Assembly: GCA_964538855.1 (NCBI GenBank)
Contig: CAZIEY010000002.1
Span: 1,709 to 65,708 of the forward strand
DNA: 64,000 nt
Source: an uncultured Candidatus Saccharibacteria bacterium
Lineage (GTDB): Bacteria > Patescibacteriota > Minisyncoccia > Phycocordibacterales > JAACPR01
Direction: 5' to 3'
In this document: piece by piece, positions 600-62,919 of the stretch
How positions within the stretch are numbered: position 1 is the stretch's first letter
How the letters are laid out: each line of letters opens with the position of its first letter
Notes under the pieces: generated by a model
The model's input: the letters and a program-made list of their open reading frames with translations, nothing else
Told to the model about the DNA's origin: nothing
The model's database searches: none
Made by a program: the position numbers and the translations under genes

Positions 600-1010
600 A
601 TGGGATGCGTGAATGATTTTGATACTTGGAACAAAAAGAAGAAAGAAATTAGTGCGAGTCTAATCTATAAACACCCAAAAGCTCAAGAAATATGGCATTG
701 TCGTGTCGGTATCAATGTCGGGTGTGAGATATATGGCAAAGGCTCAAATTATGTTCGGCCTGTTTTGGTTATAAATGACGACGGTGAAGATAATTTTATT
801 GGAGTTCCGCTCACATCAAAAATCAAAAATACAAAATATTCACGCGTGATTCGCGAAGAAGGAGGAAAACTCGCTACAGCATTGACGTATCAAATCAGAT
901 CTTTTGATAAAAGGAGACTGATAGAAAAACATAGTACTCTATCAGATGCAGAATTTGATTTGGTATGTCAAACGGTAAAAAGGTTAGTCAATTTAAAACG
1001 ACCCAATTAA
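600..1010 (+). CDS. PemK/MazF-family endoribonuclease toxin-like protein (paralog 1), with no adjacent antitoxin ORF
   Basis: EIWHCRVG...VRPVLVIN...IGVPLTSK...QIRSFDKRRL matches the PemK/MazF pattern (GEIW..RPvlVis..vvvPiTs..qirtiDk.Rl). It is 70% identical to the 36736-37149 ORF. Confidence 0.65.
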   Translation: MGCVNDFDTWNKKKKEISASLIYKHPKAQEIWHCRVGINVGCEIYGKGSNYVRPVLVINDDGEDNFIGVPLTSKIKNTKYSRVIREEGGKLATALTYQIRSFDKRRLIEKHSTLSDAEFDLVCQTVKRLVNLKRPN

Positions 1011-2002: not shown

Positions 2003-3805
2003 GTGGGTATGTCTATCGATAAAACAAAATTTATTACTCCAACTCAACTAGCCAAGATGTTGGGTATTACTCGTGTTGCTGTTCATCAGAAAATTAAAAA
2101 AGGGGACATCAAAGCTGAGAATGTCGGCGATTCATCAAAACCAACTTTCCTAATTCCTAAAGACTCATTACCTGCTGAAATACGCGAACGTATTGAGAAT
2201 GAAAAAAAGAAAATAACTGAAAGTGTGATTGGAAAAAATATTCAACATCACGATCTCAATTTTGAAAAAGAACTATGGGCAGCTGCAGATAAGCTTCGTG
2301 GAAATATCGATGTTTCCGAATATAAAAATATCGTCCTCGGATTACTTTTCTTGAAATATATATCCGACGCTTTCTATAAACGTCGCGAAGAACTTGATGC
2401 GCTAACCCGCGATCAAAAGAACGAAGATTTTTATGTTAAAGATGACAAAGCTCGGGCGCAAATTCTGGAAACAAAAGATTTCTATAAAAGTGCCGGTGTG
2501 TTTTATGTCCCCGAAAAGTCACGATGGGAATATTTGCAAACAAAAACAATGCAATCTGATATTGGCCAGGTGCTTGATAAAGCCATGGATTATATCGAAG
2601 AAGATAACCGAGCTGAACTTGAAGGTGTACTTCCAAAGATTTATACACGAACAACGCTTGATCATTCTGTTATTGGTGAGCTCGTAAATATATTCTCTCG
2701 TATTTCATTCGATCACAACTTTGATCGAGAAAAAGATATTCTCGGACGCATCTACGAATACTTCCTTGGTCAGTTTGCTTCATCTGAAGGAAAACGAGGA
2801 GGCGAATTTTTTACACCTAGATCAATCGTCAAATTACTCGTTGAAATTCTTCAGCCTTACGAAAATGCACGCGTATTAGATCCTGCTTGTGGTAGTGGTG
2901 GGATGTTTGTCGCTATGGGTGAATATCTACGCAATCACAGACAGGATGCATCAAAGCTTGCGATCAATGGGCAAGAAAGTAATCAAACAACACTTCGTCT
3001 TGCAAAGATGAATCTTGCAATTCGAGGACTCTCTGGAAAGATTGAACTCGGAAATACTTATTATCAAGACAAGTTTCCTCACCTGCAGGCAGATTTCGTG
3101 ATTGCAAACCCTCCCTTTAACGGAGAGTGGGAACCATCAAAGCTTTCTGATAATGATCCACGTATCACTCTCGGCACACCACCAAGTGGAAACGCAAACT
3201 TTATGTGGGTGCAACATTTTGCACACCACCTTGCACCAAATGGTTTAGCCGGGTTTGTTATGCCAAACGGAGCACTTGCCGTATCTGGTAAAGAAGGAGA
3301 GCTTCGCAAAAAGCTCATCGAAGAAGATCTTGTTGAGGTAATTATTTCTTGTCCATCAAAGCTTTTCTATAACGTATCTCTTCCCGTATCTTTATGGTTC
3401 TTGGCAAAGAATAAGAGTGGTGACCGTTTCCGAAAACGATCCGGTGAAACATTGTTTATTGATGCTCGAGATACATTCGAACAGATTTCACGTAAGCAGG
3501 TTGTGTTTAATCCAGAACATATAGAGAAAATCTCTAACACCGTGCGTGCGTGGCGTGGAGAAAAGGATGCGGGAAAATACGAAGATGTATCTGGATTCTG
3601 TAAGTCGGCATCTCTAGAGGAGATAAAAAAGAATGGATATGTTCTTACCCCTGGTCGTTATGTTGGACTTGCAGATGTAGAAGACGATGGAATTTCATTT
3701 GAAGAGAAGATGAAAAAACTTTCATCTGAACTTCGGAATGCTTTTGTGAAAGGTCGTGATCTGGAAAAGGAGATTGAGAAGAATTTAAAAGAATTAGGAT
3801 TCTAA
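2003..3805 (+). CDS. hsdM: Type I restriction-modification N6-adenine DNA methyltransferase subunit M with an extra N-terminal HTH (excisionase/AlpA-like) domain of about 85 aa
   Basis: LWAAADKLRG (HsdM_N), the NPPFNG catalytic motif and the FxGxG AdoMet region. N-terminal ITPTQLAKMLGITRVAVHQKIKKGDIKAENVG is HTH-like. Confidence 0.9.
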   Translation: MGMSIDKTKFITPTQLAKMLGITRVAVHQKIKKGDIKAENVGDSSKPTFLIPKDSLPAEIRERIENEKKKITESVIGKNIQHHDLNFEKELWAAADKLRGNIDVSEYKNIVLGLLFLKYISDAFYKRREELDALTRDQKNEDFYVKDDKARAQILETKDFYKSAGVFYVPEKSRWEYLQTKTMQSDIGQVLDKAMDYIEEDNRAELEGVLPKIYTRTTLDHSVIGELVNIFSRISFDHNFDREKDILGRIYEYFLGQFASSEGKRGGEFFTPRSIVKLLVEILQPYENARVLDPACGSGGMFVAMGEYLRNHRQDASKLAINGQESNQTTLRLAKMNLAIRGLSGKIELGNTYYQDKFPHLQADFVIANPPFNGEWEPSKLSDNDPRITLGTPPSGNANFMWVQHFAHHLAPNGLAGFVMPNGALAVSGKEGELRKKLIEEDLVEVIISCPSKLFYNVSLPVSLWFLAKNKSGDRFRKRSGETLFIDARDTFEQISRKQVVFNPEHIEKISNTVRAWRGEKDAGKYEDVSGFCKSASLEEIKKNGYVLTPGRYVGLADVEDDGISFEEKMKKLSSELRNAFVKGRDLEKEIEKNLKELGF

Positions 3806-6352: not shown

Positions 6353-9300
6353 ATGAACCCACTAAACGAAAACAATTTAACAGAGCAATCACTTATCGAA
6401 TGGCTACAAGGTCAGGGCTATGAGTATGTCTACGGTCCAACAATAGCACCAAATCAACCTAACGCGGAGCGCGAGGATTTTCGAGGTGTTGTACTCAAGA
6501 ATCGACTTCTTACTTCTGTACGCCGATTCAACCCACAACTTCCTGCGCTACAAGCAGAACAAGTTGTTGACGATATCGCGGGATATCACAATGCTGATGC
6601 AATGATCGGTAATAAGGAAATGTTCACTCTTATTACTGAAGGGATGAAAAAAACATGGCAAGAGGACGGTATAGAAAAAACAGAAGTTGTTAAGCTTATT
6701 GATTTTGAAAATGTTGAAGCAAACGATTTCTTAGTAACAAATCAGTTTACCGTTCAGGGTGTAGAGAATGTTTGCCGTCTTGATGGTGTTATTTTTGTGA
6801 ATGGTATTCCACTCTCAGTTTTGGAACTCAAAAGTCCCGTGCGTGAAGAAGCTTCAATTGGTCAGGCGTATCGAGATGTGGAGTACTACAAAAAAGAAAT
6901 TCCAAAGATGTTTTTGTATAACCAAGTGCTTTGTTTGTCTGATCTTACAGAAGCTCGACATGGAACAATTTCTTCTTCGTGGGAACGATACGGAACATGG
7001 AAAGGTATGAATTCGGAGATAGATGCTCCAAGCAGTGTTACGGAACTCGAGGTTCTTGCAAAAGGTCTTTTTGATAAAAAACGACTTCTCGACCTCGTTC
7101 AAAACTTCATAGTTTTTGAAGCAGATGGTGACGGTGATGCAGTGACTTACACAAAGAAGATGGCTTTATATCACCAGTACTACGGTGTAAACAAAACAAT
7201 CGATAGCACTGTGCGATCAGTTGGTGGAGAGCAAGATCGAAAGATTGGTGTCTTTTGGCACACACAAGGATCTGGAAAGTCACTCTCAATGGTTTTTTAT
7301 GTGAACAAGACAAAACGTATTCCAGAACTTAAAAGCCCTGCGTATGTTTTTCTCACTGACCGTGAAGATCTAGACGACCAACTCTTTAAGACATTTAGTC
7401 GTACAGGATATAGCACTCTTGCTAAACGAGCATCAAGTATTAAGGATTTGAAAGATAAGCTCACCCATCTTGGAAGTGAACTCATTTTTACCACTATTCA
7501 GAAATTCCAAGATGATCCTGATGCGAATAATGTTTTAAGTGAACGAGAAAATATTATCGTTCTTACTGATGAGGCACACCGAACGCAATACAGTATGCTC
7601 GCAGGTAATGTGAGACAGGCTTTGCCACAAGCAAGCTTTTTGGGTGTGACAGGAACTCCACTTTCAAACCATGATAAAAACACAATGCGTGTTTTCGGTG
7701 ATATTGTGAGTTCATACAAAATCGGACAAGCAGTAAAAGATAAAGCGACTGTGCCGATTTATTATGAAGGTCGCCTTGTTCCACTCCATTTGGCGGATAA
7801 ATTTGTAGACAGTAAGTTAGATGAAATTCTCGGAGAGATTGTGGTGGATGAAAAAGTAAAAGCTCGTAAAGAATGGGCGGTACTTGAAGAAGTTGTTGGT
7901 GCACCAAGTCGTATAAAAGAAATCGCAAGAGACGTTGTCGCTCACTTTAATAATCGCCCAATTAATGGTAAGGCGATGGTTGTTACTATGAGTCGTTCAA
8001 TTGCAGTCGCGATGTATAATGCCATAAAAGAAATTTCAGGAAGTCCGGAATGCGCGGTGATTATTTCTGGTATGGATGATTTTTCTAATCAAATTCAATC
8101 AGAGCATGATGTAAAGAAGCTCGAGAAGAGATTCAAGAAAATTAATGATCCGTTACGTTTGGTGATTGTATGTGATATGTGGCTAACAGGTTTTGATGTG
8201 CCAAATTTACACACGATGTATCTTGATAAGCCTCTTAAAAATCATGGATTAATGCAAGCAATTGCACGTGTAAATAGAGTATATAAAGATAAACCAGGTG
8301 GATTGATTGTGGATTATATTGGTATTGCCGAAAATTTAAAAAAGGCACTTGCTGTGTACGACAGTGATGTACAAAAAGAGGCAATGATTCCATTGGATGA
8401 AGTTATATTTGAAATGAAACAACTTCATGGAGAAGTTGCGTTATATTTTTCAGCAGTCGATTTTATTGGCTGGCGAGCAAAGAAGGGGGTAGAGTTGGTT
8501 GAATTTTTTCAGCACGCACTTAACGAAGTTATTTCCGAGAATGGTCGTTTATCAGATGAACGAAAAATGAGATTCATTGGTTTGGTTTCAAAATTATCTC
8601 GATTGCATGCACTTGTAATGCCTGCCGAACCAGCAATGAGTATTACGGGTGATGTGCGATTCTTCCAATCAATTAGCGAGTCTGTCAGCAAACAGACTTT
8701 TATACCTGGAATTATTTTTCCAGAAGCAACCGAGAGTGCTATCCGTAGTTTGGTGCATGATTCTGTACAAGCTGAAGGTGTGATTGATTTATTTACGAAA
8801 GCAGGAGAAGAGAGAAAAAAAATTTCAATTTTCGATGCGCGTTTTGCTGATGAAATCAATAAGACAAAATATAAAAACTTGGCAATTGACACGATTCGAA
8901 GAATGCTCGATGAGGAGATAAAAGTTCGTTCTCGTGTTAACAAGGCGCGCTATGAGTCTATGCTTACATTACTGACAGAACTTATCGCAAAATACGAAAA
9001 TAATGTGATTAGTTCTGCGGAAATTATTAAACACTTATTACAAGTTGCTGCAGAAATTAAAGAACTCGATAAGGAGAGCGAGGAGTTGGGCTTATCTTCT
9101 GATGAAGTTGTATTTTATGATACTCTTACTAGCGATCCAGAATTAAAAAAAGCAGGAATTGATATTAAAGAGTTCGTGAAAGATCTAACGAAGCGGGTTC
9201 GAAGAGATTTAACTATTGATTGGACTAATAATGAAACGATTAAAGCACGTATTCGTCAAAATGTTCGCCTGCTGATTATTCAAAAAGGTGTATCTGATAT

Positions 9301-9376
9301 GGTCCACACAGAACGTTTAATCGAATCGATTTATCAGGAAACTGTCAGGGTGTATAGGGAATATGTTCCGGCATAA
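6353..9376 (+). CDS. hsdR: Type I restriction enzyme endonuclease subunit R
   Basis: DEAH-box helicase motifs (TGSGKS-like FWHTQGSGKS, VLTDEAHRTQ), 1007 aa, operon context. Confidence 0.9.
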   Translation: MNPLNENNLTEQSLIEWLQGQGYEYVYGPTIAPNQPNAEREDFRGVVLKNRLLTSVRRFNPQLPALQAEQVVDDIAGYHNADAMIGNKEMFTLITEGMKKTWQEDGIEKTEVVKLIDFENVEANDFLVTNQFTVQGVENVCRLDGVIFVNGIPLSVLELKSPVREEASIGQAYRDVEYYKKEIPKMFLYNQVLCLSDLTEARHGTISSSWERYGTWKGMNSEIDAPSSVTELEVLAKGLFDKKRLLDLVQNFIVFEADGDGDAVTYTKKMALYHQYYGVNKTIDSTVRSVGGEQDRKIGVFWHTQGSGKSLSMVFYVNKTKRIPELKSPAYVFLTDREDLDDQLFKTFSRTGYSTLAKRASSIKDLKDKLTHLGSELIFTTIQKFQDDPDANNVLSERENIIVLTDEAHRTQYSMLAGNVRQALPQASFLGVTGTPLSNHDKNTMRVFGDIVSSYKIGQAVKDKATVPIYYEGRLVPLHLADKFVDSKLDEILGEIVVDEKVKARKEWAVLEEVVGAPSRIKEIARDVVAHFNNRPINGKAMVVTMSRSIAVAMYNAIKEISGSPECAVIISGMDDFSNQIQSEHDVKKLEKRFKKINDPLRLVIVCDMWLTGFDVPNLHTMYLDKPLKNHGLMQAIARVNRVYKDKPGGLIVDYIGIAENLKKALAVYDSDVQKEAMIPLDEVIFEMKQLHGEVALYFSAVDFIGWRAKKGVELVEFFQHALNEVISENGRLSDERKMRFIGLVSKLSRLHALVMPAEPAMSITGDVRFFQSISESVSKQTFIPGIIFPEATESAIRSLVHDSVQAEGVIDLFTKAGEERKKISIFDARFADEINKTKYKNLAIDTIRRMLDEEIKVRSRVNKARYESMLTLLTELIAKYENNVISSAEIIKHLLQVAAEIKELDKESEELGLSSDEVVFYDTLTSDPELKKAGIDIKEFVKDLTKRVRRDLTIDWTNNETIKARIRQNVRLLIIQKGVSDMVHTERLIESIYQETVRVYREYVPA

Positions 9377-9384
9377 AGTTTTTA

Positions 9385-9825
9385 ATGACATTCGAACACT
9401 CACAAGATAAAATTTTCTTCGCACAACTGCTCGCCGGCGGTTCTGTTAATGTGCTCGAACAAAAATATAGCGAACTATTCGATTTTCGAAATCCGCTTAT
9501 AAAACGAAAAGAGTTCAACGCTATTCGACCAAATCTTCTAAAAAGTTTAGTCGAAAAATACGGTCATACATGTCAGCTGCATATTCACCCGGAATGTAAT
9601 TCTGACGGTGCATTGGAAGTCGATCATATTATCCCTTTATCAACCAATGTCCTGAATAAAGAAATTCGACATATGCAACGTATTCCACCTGCAAAAGTTC
9701 CAGCGCAAAGCTTTGGTTCTAACAACATAAAAAATATGGCGTTAGCTTGTCCTAGATGCAATTCTCGAAAAAAACATAGAATTCTCGCCGAACTTACAGT
9801 GAAACTTTTGCAATTGCGGTTTTAA
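9385..9825 (+). CDS. HNH endonuclease
   Basis: HIHPECNSDGALEVDHIIPLS...N...LACPRCNSRKKHR (HNH motif with zinc-binding Cys pairs). Confidence 0.7.
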   Translation: MTFEHSQDKIFFAQLLAGGSVNVLEQKYSELFDFRNPLIKRKEFNAIRPNLLKSLVEKYGHTCQLHIHPECNSDGALEVDHIIPLSTNVLNKEIRHMQRIPPAKVPAQSFGSNNIKNMALACPRCNSRKKHRILAELTVKLLQLRF

Positions 9826-9846
9826 AATACGAGGTATCATATCCCC

Positions 9847-10338
9847 ATGATCCTCTTCCTCTCCGGCTCTATCAACTCTGGCAAATCGACGGTGGCGCGA
9901 TTGTTGGTGGAACGTGTGCCTCGAACGGCGCTTGTCGAGATTGATGTGGTGCGAGACATGGTGCCGTGGATGCCGCTTGAGGACTCGATTCCTCTCAATT
10001 GGACGAATGCAATGTCGCTCATTCGCAATTTTGTCAAAGCCGACTGCAACGTCGTTGTGCCGTATCCGCTGTCGCTCGCAAATTACGAACGGGTCATGCG
10101 CGAGCTTGCCGACATCGCTGTGCAAATGCATGTGGTGACGCTTGCTCCTCGCAAAGACATTGCTCTCACAAATCGTGGCACCCGCGAGCTGGACGATTGG
10201 GAACGCGGACGCATCGAATATCACTACAACATCGGCATCAATGCGCCTGCGTTTGGTCACATCATCGACAACTCGGCTCAGACGGTGGAGGAGACGGTGG
10301 GGGAAATATTACAATTACTGCGGCTTGTAAATATATAA
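9847..10338 (+). CDS. Small P-loop NTPase (kinase/zeta-toxin-like AAA_33 fold), GC-rich
   Basis: Walker A GSINSGKST near the N-terminus. The segment is markedly GC-rich relative to its neighbours. Confidence 0.5.
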   Translation: MILFLSGSINSGKSTVARLLVERVPRTALVEIDVVRDMVPWMPLEDSIPLNWTNAMSLIRNFVKADCNVVVPYPLSLANYERVMRELADIAVQMHVVTLAPRKDIALTNRGTRELDDWERGRIEYHYNIGINAPAFGHIIDNSAQTVEETVGEILQLLRLVNI

Positions 10339-17614: not shown

Positions 17615-18262
17615 TTGTTTATGAACATCACAAAACTAGGTCATTGCTGTCTTCTTATCGAAATCGCTGGTAAACGTGTGCTCACCGATCCGGGCGCATG
17701 GAGTACTTTGCAAAATGATGTGCGCGATATTGATCTCATTCTCATTACGCATGAACACGCGGACCATCTGCATATTGAATCGCTTGAACAAGTTCTCAAA
17801 AATAGTCCGCAGGCAAAAATCGTAACGAATTCGTCGGTAGGGAAATTGCTCGCGGCGAAATCGATTCCATTTCAAGTGCTCGAAGATGGTGGGCAGGCGA
17901 TGGTGTGCGATATCGCGCTCGAAGCGTTCGGCACTGCGCACGCTGAAATTTTTGCGGAACTTGGTCAGGTGCAAAACATCGGGTTTTTCATCAATGAAAA
18001 ATTATTTTATCCAGGTGATGCATTTACGTCGCCGGGCAAACCTGTGGATGTTCTCGCGCTCCCGATTGCGGGACCTTGGACAAGCTTTAAACAAGCGATG
18101 AATTACGCGATCGAACTACATCCTCGTGTCTGTTTTCCTGTGCACGACGGCATGCTAATTTCGGATCGCCCTGGCCCAACCTATCGATTGCCTCCGCAAA
18201 TTCTCGCGGCTCATGGAATTGAATTTGTGGTGATTGGGGTGGGGGAAACTAAAAATCTATAA
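17615..18262 (+). CDS. MBL-fold metallo-hydrolase
   Basis: LILITHEHADHL (HxHxDH motif). Confidence 0.7.
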   Translation: MFMNITKLGHCCLLIEIAGKRVLTDPGAWSTLQNDVRDIDLILITHEHADHLHIESLEQVLKNSPQAKIVTNSSVGKLLAAKSIPFQVLEDGGQAMVCDIALEAFGTAHAEIFAELGQVQNIGFFINEKLFYPGDAFTSPGKPVDVLALPIAGPWTSFKQAMNYAIELHPRVCFPVHDGMLISDRPGPTYRLPPQILAAHGIEFVVIGVGETKNL

Positions 18263-36735: not shown

Positions 36736-37149
36736 ATGGGGTGCATGAAAGATTTTGATAGTTGGAATATCAAGAAAAAGCTTATTAATAAACACAAATC
36801 TCTTCAGCATCCTAAAATAGGTGAAATTTGGTGGTGTCGAGTTGGGCTTAATATTGGAGGTGAAATATACGGTAAGAGTATCGATTACGTGAGACCAGTT
36901 CTTGTTATAAATTGTGAGGGTGATGAGAATTTTATCGGTGTCCCGCTGACTTCTAAAATAAAAAATAGAAAATATGCTTGTGTTATTATGGAAGATGACG
37001 GGACACTTGCGACAGCGTTAGTGTATCAAATTAAATCTTTTGATAAGCGAAGACTGGTAGAAAAGCATAGTACCTTATCGAATGAGTATTTCAATAAAGT
37101 CCTTGAAATTATTAGGATTTTGATCGGTAAAAATTTAACGACCCCGTGA
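36736..37149 (+). CDS. PemK/MazF-family endoribonuclease toxin-like protein (paralog 2)
   Basis: EIWWCRVG...VRPVLVIN...IGVPLTSK...QIKSFDKRRL. Paralog of 600-1010. Confidence 0.65.
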   Translation: MGCMKDFDSWNIKKKLINKHKSLQHPKIGEIWWCRVGLNIGGEIYGKSIDYVRPVLVINCEGDENFIGVPLTSKIKNRKYACVIMEDDGTLATALVYQIKSFDKRRLVEKHSTLSNEYFNKVLEIIRILIGKNLTTP

Positions 37150-48525: not shown

Positions 48526-49107
48526 TTATAAGTTAAGTTTACCCGGCAAATAATCGATAGTGCTCAAGGGGAGTAGTCGTACAAATGCTCGACCGATGAT
48601 TGTATCTTTTTTAATTGGTCCAAAATATCTCGAGTCGAGGCTGTTTTTGCGATTATCACCCATCACAAAGAGTTCGTCAGGTAATAGTGTCCATTCCGCG
48701 GTAAAACTGAAATCCTTGGTGATGTTTTGTTCGTCGAGTTTTTCAAATTCATTTGCTCCGACTTTTTTGATGAAAATTTCGTTACTTACAATTTTCACTG
48801 TTTCGCCAGGCAATCCGATGATGCGCTTGATGAAAAATTTCGAAGTGTCGCCTGCGTAACGGAAGATGACAACGTCTCCACGGGTTGGATTGTTGAACTT
48901 GTACGAAAGCTGATCAACGATAATGTATTGTCCGTCTGTAAAAGTCGGATCCATCGAAGCCCCACTCACAATGAATGGTTGAGCGACAAAGTAGCGGATA
49001 GGGAGCACCACAAAGACGATGAGTAAAACAAAATGCCATAGGTCGCGCATCGACCATTTTGTTCCTTGTTTTACTTCGTTTTCTGAGGTGGAGTTGGTTG
49101 TTTCCAT
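48526..49107 (-). CDS. lepB: Signal peptidase I
   Basis: SGASMDPT (Ser nucleophile) and GDNRKNSLDSRYFGP. Confidence 0.8.
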   Translation of the reverse strand: METTNSTSENEVKQGTKWSMRDLWHFVLLIVFVVLPIRYFVAQPFIVSGASMDPTFTDGQYIIVDQLSYKFNNPTRGDVVIFRYAGDTSKFFIKRIIGLPGETVKIVSNEIFIKKVGANEFEKLDEQNITKDFSFTAEWTLLPDELFVMGDNRKNSLDSRYFGPIKKDTIIGRAFVRLLPLSTIDYLPGKLNL

Positions 49108-52469: not shown

Positions 52470-53102
52470 ATGATAATCACATCCCAAGGACTCGAGTGTA
52501 TTAAAATTCAGCACGGTGACACCACAGTCGCATTTAATCCACCTTCAAAAAAATCGAAACACAGCGGAACTTCTTTTGGTGCAGATGTTGTACTTATCAC
52601 TGCAAATCACCCAGATTTGAACGGCGCGGAAATGGCTTCACGAAATGACAAAGAGGCATTCGTGGTCAAGGGACCGGGCGAATACGAATCAGCGGGACTT
52701 TTTATACGCGGATATTCTTCAAAAACAAATTATGGTGGACAAGAGCGAATCAATACTATATATACAGTCACTATTGATGGCATCAACGTGGCATTTCTCG
52801 GAGCGCTCGATCAAACCGAATTGGAACCAGAAGCAAAAGAGGCACTCGGCGAATCTGACGTGTTATTTGTGCCAATTGGCGGCGACGGAGTTCTAAGTGC
52901 TTCGGCTGCATATGAAATGGCGTTTAAACGCGAGCCAGCCATTATTATTCCGATTCACTACGGCGTGGTCGGTGAGAAAGATGCTCTCAAGGAATTTTTG
53001 AAAGAGGCTGGTGTGTCGAATTTAAAACCTGTCGACAAATTGACACTCAAGAAAAAAGATTTGGAAGGAAAGAAAGGAGAGATTGTGGTGATTTCGGCTT
53101 AG
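52470..53102 (+). CDS. MBL-fold metallo-hydrolase
   Basis: VLITANHPDLNG and a beta-lactamase-fold pattern. Confidence 0.55.
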   Translation: MIITSQGLECIKIQHGDTTVAFNPPSKKSKHSGTSFGADVVLITANHPDLNGAEMASRNDKEAFVVKGPGEYESAGLFIRGYSSKTNYGGQERINTIYTVTIDGINVAFLGALDQTELEPEAKEALGESDVLFVPIGGDGVLSASAAYEMAFKREPAIIIPIHYGVVGEKDALKEFLKEAGVSNLKPVDKLTLKKKDLEGKKGEIVVISA

Positions 53103-55857: not shown

Positions 55858-56385
55858 ATGTTTGTAACACCCGAAGACATAATTTCACAATTTCACATTG
55901 ATCCTGGCATGTCTGTCGCAGACCTCGGTTCGGGCGCGGGATTTTACAGTATCTTATGCGCAAAAACAGTCGGACCAAGCGGTCGTGTGTATGCTGTTGA
56001 TGTTCAAAAGGATCTTCTACAAAAGATTCAGGCAGAAGCTTCTGCGCAGGGTGTGCACAATATTAAATTGGTATGGGGTGATTTGGATCACAAAAATGGC
56101 ACTACTCTCGGCGACGTTTCTGTTGATCGAGTTTTGATTATCAACACTCTTTTTCAAATCGAAAACCGTGATGAAATGATTACCGAGGCGTGTCGCATTT
56201 TAAAACCGAAAGGGAAATTACTCTTCGTTGATTGGACTGATTCGTATGGCGGTATGGGTCCTCAATCAAAAGATATTATCAAGTACGATGTAGCTCGAAC
56301 TATGTTTGAGCACGATGGGTTTGAATTTGATCGAGATCTGAACGCAGGAGATCATCATTACGGAATTGTCTTTAAAAAATCATGA
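55858..56385 (+). CDS. Class I SAM-dependent methyltransferase
   Basis: VADLGSGAGFYS (motif I). Confidence 0.65.
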   Translation: MFVTPEDIISQFHIDPGMSVADLGSGAGFYSILCAKTVGPSGRVYAVDVQKDLLQKIQAEASAQGVHNIKLVWGDLDHKNGTTLGDVSVDRVLIINTLFQIENRDEMITEACRILKPKGKLLFVDWTDSYGGMGPQSKDIIKYDVARTMFEHDGFEFDRDLNAGDHHYGIVFKKS

Positions 56386-57701
56386 AAGAAAAATTATCAA
56401 CATTTCAAATTATTTTATTCGTAGTCCTCGGTTTCGCGATACTCATCGGAGTGCTGGTGTTTTCTTTTCAGCGTAGCAAGAGCGGGAATCAGACCGTGAA
56501 TGTGACTATGTGGGGTATGGTGCCGAATGAGATTATTATCACTTTGACTGATAAAATGAATGAGGCACATCGCGATTCAATTAATTTAACTTACACTCAA
56601 ATCCCACCTACAGAATTCGAATCGAAATTAGTCGAAGCGCTTGCGTCTGGAACTGGGCCAGACTTGGTGGTCTTTAATAATGATTTACTCGTGAAGCACG
56701 AAAACAAGCTCGCAAATATTACTTATGATTTTTATCCTCAGAAAACTTTCAAGGACACGTTTATTGGGGCCGGAGACATTTTGCTCAAAACTGATGGTAT
56801 TTCGGGCTTACCGTGGATAGTCGATCCGCTCGTGATGTATTATAATCGCACTATTTTGAATAATGAGGGTATCGCAGTGCCACCGAAATATTGGGATGAA
56901 TTTTTAGCGCTCGTACCGGCTCTTGTGAAGAAGGATTCTACGTTTAACTTGTCTCGTTCGGCGGTTTCTTTCGGAGAATTCCGCAATGTAAAGAACGCTC
57001 GCGAGATTTTTGCTACACTCGTTATGCAGGCGGGAAATCCAATCATTAGTCGAAATTTTTCACCAGCTGACACATTCGAACGAACGGCATTCATTTCTAC
57101 TTTCTCTGATCGTCTCGGTTTTAGTTTAGTTCCAGCCGAAGCAGCCCTTGCGTTCTTTACTCAATTTTCAAATCCGTCTAAAACTTCGTACTCGTGGAAT
57201 CGTGCTCTGCCAAATTCTGAAGATATGTTTTTGTTAGGTGACCTCGCATTTTATTTTGGTCGAGCAAGCGAATACGAGACGCTTCAACGCAAAAATCCAA
57301 ACCTGAATTTCGACGTTGCGATGATGCCGCAATCTCGTTCTACCGATCAGAAAACTGTTTACGCAGATTTGAGCTTTATTGGCCTTATTAAAAACTCTCC
57401 TAATTTACAAGCTGCATTTAATGCTGCGTTTCTTTTAACTAATTCTGAAAATATTAAAATCTTTTCTGATATAAGTAATTTGCCGCCAGTCCGTCGCGAT
57501 CTCTTGGTCAGTAGAAATGATAATGCAGCACTTCAAACCTTCTATTCTTCGGCCTTGATCGCACAACCGTTTGTTGACCCTAGTGTCGCAGATACCACTC
57601 GAATTCTCACTGATATGGTAGAATCAGTGGTATCAGGTCGCACAGGCGAGTCAGAATCAGTTCTACGCGCTGGTAGCGAATTGAAAAATTACTTGAAATA
57701 A
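56382..57701 (+). CDS. Extracellular solute-binding protein (ABC-transporter substrate-binding family 1) with an N-terminal anchor
   Basis: Signal anchor followed by the SBP-family-1 pattern. Confidence 0.55.
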   Translation: MKEKLSTFQIILFVVLGFAILIGVLVFSFQRSKSGNQTVNVTMWGMVPNEIIITLTDKMNEAHRDSINLTYTQIPPTEFESKLVEALASGTGPDLVVFNNDLLVKHENKLANITYDFYPQKTFKDTFIGAGDILLKTDGISGLPWIVDPLVMYYNRTILNNEGIAVPPKYWDEFLALVPALVKKDSTFNLSRSAVSFGEFRNVKNAREIFATLVMQAGNPIISRNFSPADTFERTAFISTFSDRLGFSLVPAEAALAFFTQFSNPSKTSYSWNRALPNSEDMFLLGDLAFYFGRASEYETLQRKNPNLNFDVAMMPQSRSTDQKTVYADLSFIGLIKNSPNLQAAFNAAFLLTNSENIKIFSDISNLPPVRRDLLVSRNDNAALQTFYSSALIAQPFVDPSVADTTRILTDMVESVVSGRTGESESVLRAGSELKNYLK

Positions 57702-57703
57702 TT

Positions 57704-58111
57704 ATGAAAACTTCTCACAAATTATCCCTGGTCCTCGTGAATATCTTTTTCTTTATATTTTTACTTTCTCCTCTCGTGCTACAAGCATCAACTACTTTAC
57801 CCGAAGATTGCCGGGGGCTAGTTTGCTGCTCAGACCCATCAGATTGCGATTTTGATGCTTTGATTTACACTATCGGCCATATCATTAGAAAGGTTCTAGA
57901 GATTGCTTTTGTATTTATCGCAGTAATGTTTGCGTACGCAGGGTTTAAATACATGACTTCTCAGGGTGATACGGGGCAAATCAAGGCGGCGCATGACATG
58001 TTTAGAAATGCTGCGGTGGGGATGATTATTACTTTGTGCTCGTTTTTAATTATAGAATTGATTACATCGACATTAGGTTTGGATGAATCAATTATTAAGT
58101 TGGTAAAGTAA
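57704..58111 (+). CDS. TrbC/VirB2-like pilin paralog 1
   Basis: Signal peptide then two TM helices separated by a short polar loop (FAYAGFKYMTSQGDTGQIKAA). Confidence 0.5.
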   Translation: MKTSHKLSLVLVNIFFFIFLLSPLVLQASTTLPEDCRGLVCCSDPSDCDFDALIYTIGHIIRKVLEIAFVFIAVMFAYAGFKYMTSQGDTGQIKAAHDMFRNAAVGMIITLCSFLIIELITSTLGLDESIIKLVK

Positions 58112-58113
58112 AT

Positions 58114-58500
58114 ATGAAAATCAAAACACTACGAGACAAGTTCAATAATATTGCAGCGCTATTGGTCTGTTTCCTTGCTCCCTCAGTAGCCGGCGCCAGC
58201 GAATCAGGAGGATTTGTTTTTAAAAACCCCATCTCAAAAGGAGATGATATTTATGTGTTAATCAAATCTCTTCTCGACGTTGTGGTAAAAGTTGGTACTT
58301 ACATCGTCATTGTAATGGTGATATATTCCGGATTTCTATTCGTCAAAGCGCAGGGTAACGAGAGCGCAATTAGCGAGGCTAAAAGTACTTTCTTCTGGAC
58401 GGTTATTGGCGGTGTTGTCCTCATCGGAGCAAAAGTCCTCGCGGGAGTTGTATGTAATACCGCCGTTGGTCTCGGTGCCGCGGTAAATTGTAGTATATAA
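58114..58500 (+). CDS. TrbC/VirB2-like pilin paralog 2
   Basis: Same architecture (IYSGFLFVKAQGNESAISEAK). Confidence 0.5.
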   Translation: MKIKTLRDKFNNIAALLVCFLAPSVAGASESGGFVFKNPISKGDDIYVLIKSLLDVVVKVGTYIVIVMVIYSGFLFVKAQGNESAISEAKSTFFWTVIGGVVLIGAKVLAGVVCNTAVGLGAAVNCSI

Positions 58501-58509
58501 TATAAAAAC

Positions 58510-58845
58510 ATGAACTTATTTGGAATTGCGGCAATTATACTGGGAATTATTTACGAGCTAGTTCCTCTTGCGATCGGAGTGGCAGTTCTCTATTTTTTGT
58601 GGGGATGCCTAAAATATGTAAAAGCTTCTGATGGTGAAACACAGGGCGAAGCTAAAAATATGATTACACACGGCATAATTATATTGTTCGTTATGGTTTC
58701 CGTCTGGGGGTTAGTGAATTTGATTGGAGAGACGTTTCAAATCGGTCCTCTGAATTTACGAAGTGAAACTGTAAATGTTGGTGGGGGTCTAGGAGGTGGT
58801 ACGACTTCTAGTAAAAGAATTTTTTGTTACGGACAAGGTTGTTAA
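58510..58845 (+). CDS. TrbC/VirB2-like pilin paralog 3
   Basis: LYFLWGCLKYVKASDGETQGEAKNMITHGIIILFVMVSVWGLVNLI. Confidence 0.5.
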   Translation: MNLFGIAAIILGIIYELVPLAIGVAVLYFLWGCLKYVKASDGETQGEAKNMITHGIIILFVMVSVWGLVNLIGETFQIGPLNLRSETVNVGGGLGGGTTSSKRIFCYGQGC

Positions 58846-58854
58846 TAAAAATAT

Positions 58855-59160
58855 ATGCCAAAACCATCAGGACAAGTTGCCACAAATTTAACCTTCGCAG
58901 GAATTGTAGATCTTGCAGTCTATTTACTACAATTTGTTGTGTGGATATTAATGGCGCTTGCTCTTTTGACCTTTTTATACGGACTCATGAGATACATGTT
59001 GAGTTCTGGCGACGATGGTGCACGATCAGAGAGTCGGCAATACATTATTTATGGAATACTGGGTTTGTTTGTGATGGTTGCAATGTGGGGGTTGGTCTCT
59101 GTATTAACAACTACCTTTATTCCGGGCGGTGATGTAGTCATTCCGGTCCTTCATGTGTAA
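58855..59160 (+). CDS. TrbC/VirB2-like pilin paralog 4
   Basis: LTFLYGLMRYMLSSGDDGARSESRQYIIYGILGLFVMVAMWGLVSVL. Confidence 0.5.
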   Translation: MPKPSGQVATNLTFAGIVDLAVYLLQFVVWILMALALLTFLYGLMRYMLSSGDDGARSESRQYIIYGILGLFVMVAMWGLVSVLTTTFIPGGDVVIPVLHV

Positions 59161-59247
59161 TAGCGCGACTGTTTATTTCTTTTTGTGCGGGTCTAAAATG
59201 TTGCTATAATAAAAGGGTATAGGATTTTATTAATTATAAATAATTAC

Positions 59248-59616
59248 ATGAAAAGAATTTCGACAGTTAATTTTGTGGCGGCTGCGATGTTTGCACTGAT
59301 GCCAGTAGTGACATTTGCGCAATCTTCAGGCCAAGGAGTTTTTAATATCTTGACATTGTTCTCAAGAATCGTTTCTGCATTGATTCCAATTGTCATCGGT
59401 ATCGCAGTTTTGATGTTTCTATGGGGTGTTCTCAAGTACGTTACTGCAAGCGATGAAGATGGTCAAAAGGAGGCAAAGACTACTATGATTTCTGGTATCG
59501 TAGTATTGTTCGTGATGGTGTCAATTTGGGGACTCGTCAACATTTTGGGTGATACTCTTTCTCTCAACAAGACTGCTCCACCACCTCCACAAATTCCTGG
59601 ATTCCAGTCTCGATAA
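59248..59616 (+). CDS. TrbC/VirB2-like pilin paralog 5 (clear signal peptide ...VTFAQ|SSG)
   Basis: VLMFLWGVLKYVTASDEDGQKEAKTTMISGIVVLFVMVSIWGLVNIL. Confidence 0.55.
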   Translation: MKRISTVNFVAAAMFALMPVVTFAQSSGQGVFNILTLFSRIVSALIPIVIGIAVLMFLWGVLKYVTASDEDGQKEAKTTMISGIVVLFVMVSIWGLVNILGDTLSLNKTAPPPPQIPGFQSR

Positions 59617-59628
59617 AATTGGTAATGT

Positions 59629-59871
59629 ATGGATGCCTTTCTGCAAAAATTGCTAGACACTATTATTAACCCGCTTATTACGTTGTTGTTTGCGTGTGCA
59701 GTCGTTTATTTCGTCTGGGGTGTATTCAATTACATCAAAGGCGAAGATAATGGTGGTGACCGCGAGACAGGCACAAAACACATAATGTGGGGGATAATCG
59801 GACTGTTTATTATGGTGTCTGCATATGCGATTGTTCAAATTGTAGGAAGAACATTCTTGATCATTCCGTAG
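59629..59871 (+). CDS. TrbC/VirB2-like pilin paralog 6 (no signal peptide)
   Basis: VVYFVWGVFNYIKGEDNGGDRETGTKHIMWGIIGLFIMVSAYAIVQIV. Confidence 0.45.
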   Translation: MDAFLQKLLDTIINPLITLLFACAVVYFVWGVFNYIKGEDNGGDRETGTKHIMWGIIGLFIMVSAYAIVQIVGRTFLIIP

Positions 59872-59894: not shown

Positions 59895-59945
59895 AGCAAT
59901 TAAAAAAGCCGCGTGAGTGTCTGTCACACACTACGCGGCTTTTGC
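59895..59945. terminator. Bidirectional terminator (CCGCGTGAGTGT-N-ACACACTACGCGG flanked by A-run and T-run)
   Basis: Hairpin between convergent genes. Confidence 0.5.
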
Positions 59946-59972: not shown

Positions 59973-60491
59973 TCACCTCTCCTTGTATCGCAGTGTGAAG
60001 GAAGATGCTGGACATCTTTCAGGCACTTTGGCCTGTAGGAGATCCGTCACCTTGTCGAGCCCCACGTCCCAACGGACATAAGGACTGTCTTCCGTCCAGC
60101 GGTCACCCTTATCCGCTGGGGTCCACTGCTCGCCACGTGAATTTCGCATGTGGCGTTGGTCCGAGCTAACCGGAACCCAGTGGGTGATCTTGTTGCCATT
60201 GGTATCCACGCGGATGCTTCCGGCCCGAAGCAAGACCACGTTCCCAGAGTCCGTCCCAACCTCTTGTCGGTTGGTTTCGTACTCCTTGACTTCACCTGGG
60301 AGGATGAGGTCTGAGATGGAGGTGGGCAGGGGTTTGGGTGCAGGCGGAACCACCCCCACCTGCACCTTTGTCGTAATCGTGGATGTCGGTGGTGGTGGGG
60401 TCATCAACCATGAGACGAAATTCGGCCCATAGATGAGTGCAGTCAGCAAGATGACGCTGACACTGAACCATTTCAACTTAGAACCTTTCAC
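59973..60491 (-). CDS. Hypothetical secreted/anchored Pro-rich protein, GC-rich
   Basis: N-terminal TM/signal, then a PPPPTSTITTKVQVGVVPPAPKPLP linker. GC is visibly above the genome background. Confidence 0.4.
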   Translation of the reverse strand: MKGSKLKWFSVSVILLTALIYGPNFVSWLMTPPPPTSTITTKVQVGVVPPAPKPLPTSISDLILPGEVKEYETNRQEVGTDSGNVVLLRAGSIRVDTNGNKITHWVPVSSDQRHMRNSRGEQWTPADKGDRWTEDSPYVRWDVGLDKVTDLLQAKVPERCPASSFTLRYKER

Positions 60492-61672
60492 TTTCCACCT
60501 TCCTTGCCTTGTTTGCGTCTACGACTCATCACTTCGCCCGCAAGCCTTGCCACATCTTCGGGGTTGGTAAGACTGACACTTTCAAGTCCGCGAAGCTCGA
60601 GGATATCCTTCCGGATATCTCCGATACCTGTCGAGATTTGCGCCTGTTCTAGCCAATATTGCCGTTCCTTGCGACCCTCTTCAGTCTTGGCTAAGTTGTT
60701 GATGTTGTCTCCTGCTAATTCTGACGCAACTTCGATTAGTTTCTTTGCAAGTGCGATGTCTCCGAGAACCTTTTTGTATTCAGGTTCCCAGTCCACCTTT
60801 TTATAGAGCACTTGCTTTATTTTCACGCCAAGTGTGCGAGTCATGTCTGTCAAATGTGCAATAACACTCACTCCGATCTCAGAGGTTTTATTCATTAGAT
60901 AATCGGAGCTTTTGGTTTTTGCAAGTTGCCCTGCATACTCTGCGGCAGCATTTTCAAGTACATCAGTGACGTACTCTACTCGTTTTGCCTCGATCGGGTT
61001 GATTTGGGCGTACAGCTGTACTTGGTTTGCATCTGGATCAGGTTCCCAGATAAGCATCTGTTCCCCGACCACATTCGCAGCCCCACTTGCTGGTTCCCAC
61101 TCAAAACTCTGTTCCGGAGTATTGTGTTTTCGTAACTCAACCCATTTTTCTTCGGACAATTTCTTGATGTGGATTAACCAAGCAGTTATCCTACCTGCTT
61201 TACCGATCAAGTACATCTGTATTCCTGTAACAGAATCCTTCTTCCCAAAAAAACGATCTTGGAACAAAGGGATTTTGTTATTATCTGGAGTACAGATGAG
61301 CATGGTCATGATCGCGAACACGGCACTCGTGCTCAAAATAAATGCCCATCGGCACAAATGCACGGCAGTCGGTATTTTGTGCAGAATGATACCCGAGAGT
61401 AGCATTCCGACGAAGACCGAGACTCCGCCAATGACGACCCAAGGGCCGGATTGGTCCATCTCATTTTTCGTTTGGTTTTTTCGGACACTGGTAACATATG
61501 CTACCAGACTGATCACGAGTGCGATCAGTGAGAGAATAATCCAGAAGTTCATGTCAGGTTTCCTTTGCGTCGGTTTTCTCAAAGATCTCGAGGAATTGAA
61601 CCTCGTTTCGGGCAGAGCAAGACGCTCTTCCGATACTCGTGCATTATAGCACACATTATTGACATCTGTCAA
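60488..61672 (-). CDS. Hypothetical membrane protein (possibly SPFH/band-7-like C-terminal domain), GC-rich
   Basis: Multiple N-terminal TM helices. The C-terminal half is a charged coiled region. ATGA overlap with the downstream gene. Confidence 0.4.
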   Translation of the reverse strand: MTDVNNVCYNARVSEERLALPETRFNSSRSLRKPTQRKPDMNFWIILSLIALVISLVAYVTSVRKNQTKNEMDQSGPWVVIGGVSVFVGMLLSGIILHKIPTAVHLCRWAFILSTSAVFAIMTMLICTPDNNKIPLFQDRFFGKKDSVTGIQMYLIGKAGRITAWLIHIKKLSEEKWVELRKHNTPEQSFEWEPASGAANVVGEQMLIWEPDPDANQVQLYAQINPIEAKRVEYVTDVLENAAAEYAGQLAKTKSSDYLMNKTSEIGVSVIAHLTDMTRTLGVKIKQVLYKKVDWEPEYKKVLGDIALAKKLIEVASELAGDNINNLAKTEEGRKERQYWLEQAQISTGIGDIRKDILELRGLESVSLTNPEDVARLAGEVMSRRRKQGKEGGK

Positions 61673-61812: not shown

Positions 61813-61815
61813 ATG

Positions 61816-61896
61816 TGCACGAGAGAGGACTTGAACCTCCAAGGATTGCTCCACTAGTTCCTAAGACTAGCGCGTATACCATTCCGCCACTCGTGC
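61816..61896 (-). tRNA. tRNA-Leu (anticodon TAG), long variable arm, CCA not encoded
   Basis: Reverse complement: GCACGAG TG GCG GAATGGTATA CGC G CTAGT CTTAGGA ACTAG ... GGAGG TTCAAGT CCTCT CTCGTGC A. Confidence 0.75.
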
Positions 61897-61930
61897 ATGC
61901 GTTTTGTTCGGCCGCCGCCGTAAAAACGTG

Positions 61931-62003
61931 TCCACCCAGTAGGATTCGAACCTACGACCTTCCGCTTAAGAGGCGATTGCTCTACCAACTGAGCTATGGA
62001 TGG
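61931..62003 (-). tRNA. tRNA-Lys (anticodon CTT), CCA not encoded
   Basis: Reverse complement: CCATCCA TA GCTC AGTTGGTA GAGC A ATCGC CTCTTAA GCGGA AGGTC GTAGG TTCGAAT CCTAC TGGGTGG A. Confidence 0.7.
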
Positions 62004-62050: not shown

Positions 62051-62740
62051 TTACTTTTTGGAGTCAGATGCTTCGTAATGCCAGTGCCATGGTTCATGAA
62101 CAATACCGGACTGATTATCTTTTGGGTATGATTCGAAAAAACCAAAATGTGCCGCATGTGCCAAAAGCCACGCGTATTCTTTGGTGGTTGCAAATTTTGA
62201 TTCGGGTCCGGTGTTTGGAGTGTCACCTTCGATCATGACGTCGATTGCCTGATGATCCGGGGCGCCGTGTTCGCTGTATCCGGGGATTGCAACGCTTTTC
62301 AAAGTTTTCGCGATATCAAAATTATTAGCGCGTAAATTCCATAGAAAAACAATTGTTTGATATGCAGGGGACCGATAGCCTGAAAAAATAACAATCTTTT
62401 TTCCGATTTCTTGTTGCATGGCAGCATTCATATTTTGAAAAGCAAGTAGGACGGGTTCTGGTAACAGCTGCTCGCCATATGATTCGGGAACGAGCTTGAT
62501 ATTTTCTGGAACTGGTTGTAGGTCAAAGTATTGTCCCTGGAATCCGTATTCACGCGGGTCGATTTTAAGGAGGGAATGGATATATTCTTGAACGTCTTCA
62601 TCAAACGGCGACAAAAGATCAGGGAAGTCCATCGTTGCTCGTTCGTGTGGAGTTTTTCGGATTTTATTTATTGTGTCGATAATCCGCGTGACACGTTTGT
62701 GGTCAGGAGTCTGTAGAACTTCGTTATGATATTCATCCAT
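62051..62740 (-). CDS. D-Ala-D-Ala carboxypeptidase (peptidase M15B, VanY-like)
   Basis: SGYRS, GYSEHGAPDHQAIDV and EPWHWHYE motifs. Start trimmed to MDEYHNEV because the longer ORF runs through the tRNA genes. Confidence 0.65.
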   Translation of the reverse strand: MDEYHNEVLQTPDHKRVTRIIDTINKIRKTPHERATMDFPDLLSPFDEDVQEYIHSLLKIDPREYGFQGQYFDLQPVPENIKLVPESYGEQLLPEPVLLAFQNMNAAMQQEIGKKIVIFSGYRSPAYQTIVFLWNLRANNFDIAKTLKSVAIPGYSEHGAPDHQAIDVMIEGDTPNTGPESKFATTKEYAWLLAHAAHFGFFESYPKDNQSGIVHEPWHWHYEASDSKK

Positions 62741-62825
62741 GGTGCCCGAGGAGGGACTTGAACCCTCATCCCTTGCGAGACACAATTTTAAGTCGTGCGT
62801 GTATACCATTCCACCACTCGGGCAA
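62741..62825 (-). tRNA. tRNA-Leu (anticodon TAA), long variable arm, CCA encoded
   Basis: Reverse complement: GCCCGAG TG GTG GAATGGTATA CAC G CACGA CTTAAAA TTGTG ... GAGGG TTCAAGT CCCTC CTCGGGC A CCA. Confidence 0.75.
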
Positions 62826-62849
62826 ATTTCTGTAATTTTTTTACAGGAG

Positions 62850-62919
62850 GTGCGGGTGGGGATTGAACCCACGTATGGCAGTTTTGCAAACTGCAGCGTT
62901 ACCACTTCGCCACCGCACC
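62850..62919 (-). tRNA. tRNA-Cys (anticodon GCA), discriminator U
   Basis: Reverse complement: GGTGCGG TG GCG AAGTGGTAA CGC T GCAGT TTGCAAA ACTGC CATAC GTGGG TTCAATC CCCAC CCGCACC T. Confidence 0.7.

Follow-up and report, generated by a model that had tools for sequence, protein, structure and literature searches.

Epibiotic Patescibacteria have already been reported to carry VirB2-like pilin genes in tandem arrays (PMC12102498, PMC10633639). A survey of Patescibacterial type IV secretion systems (T4SSs) recorded 441 arrays of 2–11 VirB2-like genes, with a mean identity of 25% and a maximum of 54%, which are most abundant in Microgenomatia and Saccharimonadia and are mapped in its Fig. S9 'near virB4' (Quinonero-Coronel et al. 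2025, PMC12102498), and in Southlakia epibionticum ML1 the six PF18895 genes SEML1_0014-0019 are all essential by transposon sequencing (Tn-seq) (Wang et al. 2023, PMC10633639; review PMC12857230). We describe here six consecutive pilin-like genes in a 64,000-nucleotide stretch of contig CAZIEY010000002.1 (referred to below, at its full length, as the window), from an uncultured Patescibacterium. Because such arrays have been published in these two studies, the tandem VirB2-like array is itself already known in Patescibacteria and the one in the window is a further instance; what seems to be undescribed is that it is detached from T4SS genes and coupled, in a conserved manner, to genes for an extracellular solute-binding protein (SBP) and a methyltransferase.

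The S. epibionticum array and that of the window both consist of six tandem divergent PF18895 genes, some of which also match PF04956, the S. epibionticum products being about 125–140 aa long. However, the S. epibionticum array adjoins, and is divergent from, the VirB4/VirB6/PrgI genes, has no SBP gene and is of proven essentiality, whereas the window array is separated from any T4SS gene by at least 57 kb in one direction and about 11 kb in the opposite one, is in an operon with the SBP and methyltransferase genes, and is known from sequence alone. The surveyed arrays resemble it in being tandem and of low identity, and its six genes fall within their range of 2–11. In the part of Table S3 of the survey considered here, every PF18895-based VirB2 call is flagged near virB4, and virB4-distant calls come only from CONJScan profiles, as in a Nomurabacteria genome with T_virB2 and two 'PrgF' matches at genes 786-788 and VirB4 at gene 545 (PMC12102498). 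Neither 'solute-binding' nor 'gyrA' occurs in that paper, which makes no mention of virB4-detached, SBP-coupled Paceibacteria arrays, and our literature searches found no paper tying an SBP to VirB2 arrays in Patescibacteria; this detached and SBP-coupled form may thus be under-reported.

The six open reading frames (ORFs) are on the plus strand at 57704-59871 (Table 1), encode products of 80–135 aa, and are separated by successive gaps of 2, 9, 9, 87 and 12 nt. A preliminary description of the locus had taken them for tandem paralogs with a TrbC/VirB2-type pilin architecture, and the paralogy is borne out by BLASTP, with ORF3 to ORF6 being clear paralogs (30–53% identity, E-values of 1e-13 to 1e-28; ORF3 and ORF5 are 53% identical, and ORF4 is 31–38% identical to ORF3, ORF5 and ORF6) and ORF1 and ORF2 distant ones (about 20% identity, E ~1e-5 to 1e-6). 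Matches of ORF1 to ORF2, ORF4, ORF5 and ORF6 (E 1e-6 to 5e-5) tie it to the others; the pairing of ORF2 with ORF3 alone is not significant by BLASTP, and mutual identity over the six proteins ranges from 16 to 53%. By hydropathy, each ORF has a pair of hydrophobic helices with a short polar loop between them. The previously quoted loop motif, F/Y-W/Y-G-x-L/F-K/R-Y...D/G..G....K, is seen in the alignment. The signal peptide said to be shared by all six is found in only half of them: leader-like N-termini are present in ORF1 (ending ...LQA/S), ORF2 (...AGA/S) and ORF5 (...TFA/Q), whereas ORF3, ORF4 and ORF6 begin at or just ahead of helix 1, with preceding stop codons that bar a longer frame. 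AlphaFold2 models agree with this architecture, that of ORF5 (pLDDT 78.8; helices 7-26, 30-66 and 70-105) being a helical hairpin after a signal-peptide helix, and that of ORF6 (pLDDT 79.3; helices 3-40 and 44-78) a plain helical hairpin.

The family assignment is supported by profile searches, and we conclude that the six genes are a predicted array of VirB2/TrbC-superfamily (PF18895) pilin-like membrane proteins. ORF2 to ORF6 pass PF18895 (T4SS_pilin; gathering score 26.6 bits) with 28.7, 28.3, 36.9, 37.5 and 41.3 bits respectively, ORF1 narrowly misses it at 21.2 bits (E 3.2e-4), and PF18895 is present in 75 of the 75 ORF5 homologs with a domain call. PF04956 (TrbC/VirB2; gathering score 27.9 bits), which had been suggested as a check on each paralog, is passed by ORF2 (33.8 bits) and not by the other five, of which ORF6, ORF5 and ORF1 score 18.3, 16.8 and 11.8 bits and ORF3 and ORF4 give no match. 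All six match the NCBIfam model NF045849, the 'Mbov_0395 family pilin-like conjugal transfer protein' of Mycoplasma integrative and conjugative elements (ICEs), below its cutoff of 40 bits (15.6–32.9 bits, ORF6 being highest at 32.9 and ORF1 having an E-value of 1.2e-5), and ORF6 has in addition a weak Pfam match to Maff2. Two other assignments were considered and rejected: type IV pilins of the PilA kind, since the class III signal G/F-x-x-x-E is absent in all six and each has two helices rather than one, and homology to pCF10 PrgF, for which the hhalign probability is 2% and there is no significant profile similarity.

With a profile of the pilin family, 46,632 clusters (50% identity) are recovered at E <= 1e-3 from 1.84 billion representative proteins. 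In many members a single polypeptide comprises 2, 3, 5–11 and up to 17 tandem pilin modules (among them P0212, of 1775 aa, P0243, P0255 and P0261), and fusions also occur in related loci (L003/L011 at 8525-9589, L013 at 7917-8945 and L037 at 9160-9888), where the middle slot of the array holds either one to three genes or a single protein with two or three fused pilin modules in place of the separate genes of the window. The T4SS survey does not, as far as we could find, refer to 'poly-pilins' of this kind (PMC12102498).

Table 1. Positions of the array, its neighbors and other features of the window.
Feature	Position	Strand	Description
Small SAM-dependent methyltransferase	55858-56385	+	175 aa; PF13847/PF13649/PF08241, E 3e-18 to 2e-13
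Family-1 extracellular SBP	56382-57701	+	439 aa; PF13416 E 3.6e-22; PF01547 E 5.7e-14
Pilin-like gene 1 (ORF1)	57704-58111	+	135 aa; signal peptide, Cys-rich N-terminal stretch, two-helix hairpin
Pilin-like gene 2 (ORF2)	58114-58500	+	128 aa; signal peptide and hairpin; most TrbC/VirB2-like of the six
Pilin-like gene 3 (ORF3)	58510-58845	+	111 aa; no signal peptide; Gly-rich, Cys-containing C-terminal tail; middle, variable slot
Pilin-like gene 4 (ORF4)	58855-59160	+	101 aa; no signal peptide; middle slot
Extended -10 promoter-like element	59202-59210	+	TGCTATAAT, read from sequence; 38 nt upstream of the ORF5 start codon
Pilin-like gene 5 (ORF5)	59248-59616	+	122 aa; signal peptide, hairpin, Pro-rich tail; candidate major subunit
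Pilin-like gene 6 (ORF6)	59629-59871	+	80 aa; bare hairpin, no signal peptide; last gene
GC-rich inverted repeat	59908-59939		GCCGCGT...ACGCGGC flanked by an A-run and a T-run, read from sequence
Terminator-like site (inner stem of repeat)	59930-59910	-	from scan
Slot gene, smaller	59973-60491	-	
Slot gene, larger	60488-61672	-	true start likely Met near 61552
Signal peptidase I	48526-49107		
Lactamase_B_3 gene	17615-18262	+	215 aa
Lactamase_B_3 gene	52470-53102	+	210 aa; within the S1/GyrA block
PemK/MazF-type toxin gene	600-1010	+	136 aa
PemK/MazF-type toxin gene	36736-37149	+	137 aa
hsdM	2003-3805		type I restriction-modification system
hsdR	6353-9376		type I restriction-modification system
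HNH gene	9385-9825		
tRNA pair Leu-TAG/Lys-CTT	61815-62003	-	
tRNA pair Leu-TAA/Cys-GCA	62740-62919	-	
VanY-type D-Ala-D-Ala carboxypeptidase ORF	62051-62905	-	overruns the Leu-TAA and Cys tRNA genes

The array is directly downstream of a solute-binding protein gene, as had been noted, and this gene encodes a family-1 SBP that ends 2 nt ahead of pilin gene 1. The stop codon of the methyltransferase gene overlaps the start of the SBP gene, such that the methyltransferase is the first gene of a methyltransferase-SBP-pilin unit. We compared the locus with the best 80 of at least 574 confirmed matches in a single-pattern scan of GTDB genomes, and the coupling is nearly invariant. An SBP homolog is present in 66 of the 67 loci with enough upstream sequence and is directly upstream of the array, on the same strand, in 64 of the 67, with a median SBP-to-first-pilin gap of 2 nt and a maximum of 146 nt (65 loci); the methyltransferase in turn is directly upstream of the SBP gene in 64 of 65 loci, with a median gap of 14 nt. 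The block from S1 to the array is conserved, with S1, Lactamase_B_3 and GyrA upstream of the array in 59 related loci, and insertions of 0.3–2.2 kb separate GyrA from the methyltransferase in 13 of 60. Because the gaps are short from the methyltransferase onward and the insertions fall between it and GyrA, we take the tight unit to be methyltransferase-SBP-pilins, and by sequence and comparison these genes form one translationally coupled, co-transcribed operon. The SBP starts with a conserved N-terminal membrane anchor (...S-x-F-Q-I-I-L...), and no ABC permease or ATPase partner adjoins its gene. The methyltransferase, which is linked to the SBP-pilin unit as closely as is the SBP, could be a housekeeping enzyme or a modifier of an array component.

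The ORF5 homologs and the 80 related loci are all from Patescibacteria/Paceibacterota metagenome-assembled genomes (MAGs) with labels that include Paceibacterota, Parcubacteria, Taylor-, Zambryski-, Wolfe- and Nomurabacteria, and three loci matched to Table S1 of PMC12102498 are of the class Paceibacteria. By these relatives the array host is a Paceibacteria-class Patescibacterium. A tandem array is present in every one of the 80 related loci that is not cut by a contig end.

The paralogs have evidently been maintained. Relative to a sister strain (L004; MAG GCA_964412465.1) with 88–93% DNA identity across the locus, the ratios of nonsynonymous to synonymous substitution rates (dN/dS) of the six pilin-like genes are 0.029–0.073 (0.054 for ORF1, 0.073 for ORF2 and 0.058 for ORF4), and those of S1, GyrA and other flanking genes are 0.015–0.033. 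Given these low values, all six are real genes under purifying selection, and the diversifying selection contemplated earlier is not what these whole-gene ratios reveal. When the pilin genes of 66 complete arrays are each assigned to the window gene that they match best, a class-1-like gene opens 56 arrays and a class-2-like gene is second in 61, a class-5-like gene penultimate in 63 and a class-6-like gene last in 62, with one to three ORF3/4/5-like genes between class 2 and class 5; positional orthology extends even to a genome with a GyrA of just 70% identity. Because class position is fixed across 66 genomes and purifying selection is strong, the paralogs would appear to have distinct roles, which points to an ancient, ordered set of distinct subunits and not to interchangeable antigenic variants. 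We rejected a recent, diversifying amplification of the pilins in view of the fixed class order and dN/dS values <=0.07.

ORF5 is peculiar among the six. In 76 loci, the median distance between the penultimate pilin gene and the gene before it is 103.5 nt, compared with 9 nt for other gaps, and the corresponding 87 nt in the window, its array's only long intergenic gap, contain TGCTATAAT, an extended -10 element whose -35 is poor and which was consequently missed by a consensus promoter scan. TATAAT is present in 36 of the 76 penultimate-gene gaps and TGnTAnAAT in 15, although these are raw counts without a chance control. ORF5 is 99% identical to its L004 ortholog and has a synonymous rate (dS) of 0.12, against 0.4–0.9 for its neighbors, a pattern to be expected of a very highly expressed gene, and the signal peptide is kept in 90% of ORF5 orthologs compared with 17% of last-gene orthologs. 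From its upstream gap, the TGCTATAAT element, the lowest dS, the 99% identity and the retained signal peptide, we infer that ORF5 is the major subunit and that the other five are accessory or minor subunits. We also note that many relatives have, ahead of the penultimate pilin gene, a TATAAT box and, no more than about 10 nt after it, a conserved hairpin, GACTTTT...AAAAGTCG / AAAGGTCGCTTA (for example in L015, L018, L019, L020, L024, L034, L035 and L040). The major-pilin transcript would then begin with a stem-loop, possibly one that acts as an mRNA stabilizer or regulatory element; the hairpin is missing from the window and its closest relatives. At the other end of the array, the GC-rich inverted repeat after ORF6, the inner stem of which is picked up by the terminator scan on the minus strand, probably terminates transcription in both directions, from the array and from the gene convergent with it.

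Agrobacterium VirB2, RP4 TrbC and F TraA (PF04956) are small proteins with a leader, a two-helix hairpin and a short charged loop, and ORF2 passes their model. However, these are proteins of diderm hosts whose genes lie in the T4SS operon itself, in most cases with just one major pilin, frequently cyclized, whereas in the window array five ORFs are below the PF04956 threshold, three have no leader, and the modelled structures do not retrieve the classical pilins by Foldseek. Several divergent VirB2 copies lie side by side in the T4SS loci of Bartonella and Anaplasma (cited in PMC12102498), as they do here, although those copies are read as antigenic or host-range variation while the window classes are fixed in position and under purifying selection. 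The NF045849 proteins of Mycoplasma ICEs are likewise small two-helix proteins of a monoderm T4SS, but their gene is present in single copy and is carried by a mobile element, and the window ORFs score below the threshold of the family.

We consider it probable that the locus encodes a VirB2-like pilin array whose products are built into a surface filament or conduit for host contact by a machine of the VirB4 type whose genes lie elsewhere in the genome. In such a model, the co-transcribed methyltransferase, SBP and six pilin genes would have an internal promoter ahead of ORF5, and each product would insert in the cytoplasmic membrane as a helical hairpin, with ORF1, ORF2 and ORF5 doing so after signal-peptidase cleavage (a signal peptidase I gene is present in the window) and ORF3, ORF4 and ORF6 directly. 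ORF5 would be the abundant subunit and the other five would take specific positions as minor or accessory subunits. By analogy with described systems, the VirB4-type ATPase machine would then extract the hairpins and build the filament or conduit, which the cell may use to contact the host on which it depends; the SBP could be located at the same surface structure and might, as a guess, serve in capture or recognition of host-derived glycans. VirB4 is encoded in 2,417 of 3,035 Patescibacteria assemblies, about 80% (PMC12102498), and Patescibacterial T4SSs have been described as unique among monoderms in their potential to make pili (2025 review, PMC12857230).

Several observations weigh against this model. 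The gene neighborhood gives no support for a link to a T4SS machine: a Pfam scan of the plausible ORFs of at least 120 aa in the 64-kb window (ORFs nested in or overlapping longer annotated genes being left out) found no VirB4, VirB3/PrgI, VirB6, VirB8, TrsD or coupling protein, consistent with the earlier statement that VirB4 and VirB6 are missing, and there is no T4SS gene in the 1.7 kb past the left end of the window or in the approximately 7 kb past the right end, which holds IF-2, DUF4446, an aminotransferase and ClpB. Among the 80 related genomes, there is no ORF of at least 330 aa resembling VirB4 or a coupling ATPase within 10 kb of the array, a search in which VirB3/PrgI and VirB8 were not looked for. 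A query of the protein collection with pCF10 PrgJ, meant to yield a Patescibacterial VirB4, matched only Firmicutes relatives. The three array genomes matched in Table S1 of PMC12102498, all incomplete MAGs, comprise one that is VirB4-positive (Zambryskibacteria 46_25) and two that are negative (Taylorbacteria 51_15 and Parcubacteria Greene0416_79). The missing signal peptide in three members is unlike classical VirB2/TrbC; a Foldseek search of the PDB with the ORF5 and ORF6 models does not single out VirB2/TraA, the best matches (E ~2) being generic helical hairpins; and a profile search against PDB sequences gave no match. We also know of no pilus seen for any Patescibacterial T4SS.

In a different configuration, which we think unlikely but not remote, the six proteins would stay in the membrane as pilin-like components of a T4SS channel of the monoderm type, as is assumed for the small two-helix proteins of conjugation systems in Gram-positive bacteria and Mollicutes, and no extended pilus would be made. 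In favor of this, VirB4 of the Patescibacteria forms a clade inside the monoderm MPF-FATA class, for which pilus formation is not known (PMC12102498), NF045849 is the next best family after PF18895, and ORF6 has the weak match to Maff2. Polypeptides with 2–17 fused pilin modules also fit a membrane oligomer more easily than a filament. However, ORF2 passes the TrbC/VirB2 model itself, the array has one apparent high-expression subunit with its own promoter, as is typical of the major subunit of a polymer, and the lack of significant profile similarity to pCF10 PrgF does not favor a channel. Holins, bacteriocin immunity proteins or toxin-antitoxin membrane peptides share with the six only their size and two hydrophobic helices, and we regard the chance that the array consists of such unrelated small membrane proteins as negligible. 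No PHROGs match, to a holin or any other phage family, was found for any of the six (E <= 0.01), for which reason the holin or phage explanation fails, nor does any holin or bacteriocin immunity family match them in Pfam or NCBIfam. These searches, on which the preliminary description had proposed to let the pilin assignment stand or fall, thus came out in its favor, and the context is one of core chromosome with no phage or bacteriocin genes nearby.

The conserved SBP raises a further set of models. Archaea have a 'bindosome' in which sugar-binding proteins are assembled by pilin-type machinery, and the array with its SBP could be loosely similar, a T4SS-independent assembly at the surface or in the membrane for binding or uptake of host-derived sugars. 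The SBP-pilin coupling described above, the SBP gene without an adjoining ABC permease or ATPase, the absence of a large T4SS ATPase gene near the array in 80 genomes and the VirB4-negative score of two of the three matched genomes are all in keeping with this, but we consider it distinctly improbable. The SBP linkage could reflect inherited synteny within one lineage, as the whole S1-to-array block is conserved, and incompleteness of MAGs can explain a missing VirB4 when some 80% of Patescibacteria genomes encode one. In addition, the S. epibionticum array is beside T4SS genes and has no SBP, and the SBP in the window does not have the class-III (type-IV-pilin-like) signal peptide that would have favored the bindosome analogy, but only the S-x-F-Q-hydrophobic anchor. 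A related and rather improbable proposal is that one large Paceibacteria lineage has uncoupled VirB2-like proteins from the T4SS cluster and turned them into a fixed module of five to seven subunits, expressed together with a methyltransferase and an anchored SBP of the oligosaccharide type, that forms a surface fiber or membrane assembly displaying or serving the SBP to capture host material and may work without VirB4. Of these configurations we favor assembly of the pilins by a VirB4-type machine encoded elsewhere.

Downstream of the array are two minus-strand genes that had been described as a GC-rich two-gene island, in agreement with their GC contents of 0.56 and 0.46 against 0.416 for the window. 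The 88–93% DNA identity between the window and L004 stops at 60033 and resumes at 61546; between these positions the two encoded proteins are only 51% and 22% identical to those of L004, with a dN/dS of 0.38 for the small gene. In the more distant L003, genes of similar size and orientation occupy the slot and have no BLAST similarity to the window pair, and a detectable homolog of a slot gene is found in only one of the 80 loci. These comparisons make the island a hypervariable slot. Its origin as an integrated mobile element was considered but found no support, since relatives have extremely divergent genes of similar size and the same orientation and there is no integrase. N-terminal helices are present in the larger protein, which also matches SPFH/Band_7 weakly and phrog_200 'lipoprotein' with an E-value of 4.7e-7, and the equivalent gene of L071 passes Band_7 (38.9 bits).

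Elsewhere the window is ordinary core chromosome, including a type I restriction system, MurJ, LepA, ValRS, FtsZ/FtsA, signal peptidase I, S1 and GyrA. It contains two Lactamase_B_3 genes, the second being the one within the S1/GyrA block, and two PemK/MazF-type toxin genes that lie 36 kb apart and share the same profile alignment range. One of the latter is beside the type I restriction-modification system, which runs through hsdM, a Bro-N protein gene, hsdS and hsdR to an HNH gene. Two tRNA pairs flank a VanY-type carboxypeptidase gene, the ORF of which overruns two of the tRNA genes, and the true start is therefore further in (the sister-strain protein has 252 aa); an over-extended call of this gene is present in at least one public record (284 aa, L089).

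The Patescibacteria account for much of the diversity of bacteria and live in attachment to other microbes, and their means of obtaining what they need from these hosts is a standing question in the field. Few systems have been shown to be essential in the single species amenable to genetics; the T4SS and its pilin array belong to them, and their role there has been called 'completely unknown' (PMC11665869). The locus described here leaves that picture unchanged, but adds facts for the most species-rich class, the Paceibacteria, namely ordered and distinct subunits, one apparent major subunit, and a set that is inseparable from an SBP gene. It offers concrete candidates for structure prediction of hetero-oligomers, proteomics and cryo-electron tomography, and suggests that surveys limited to the neighborhood of virB4 undercount such arrays.

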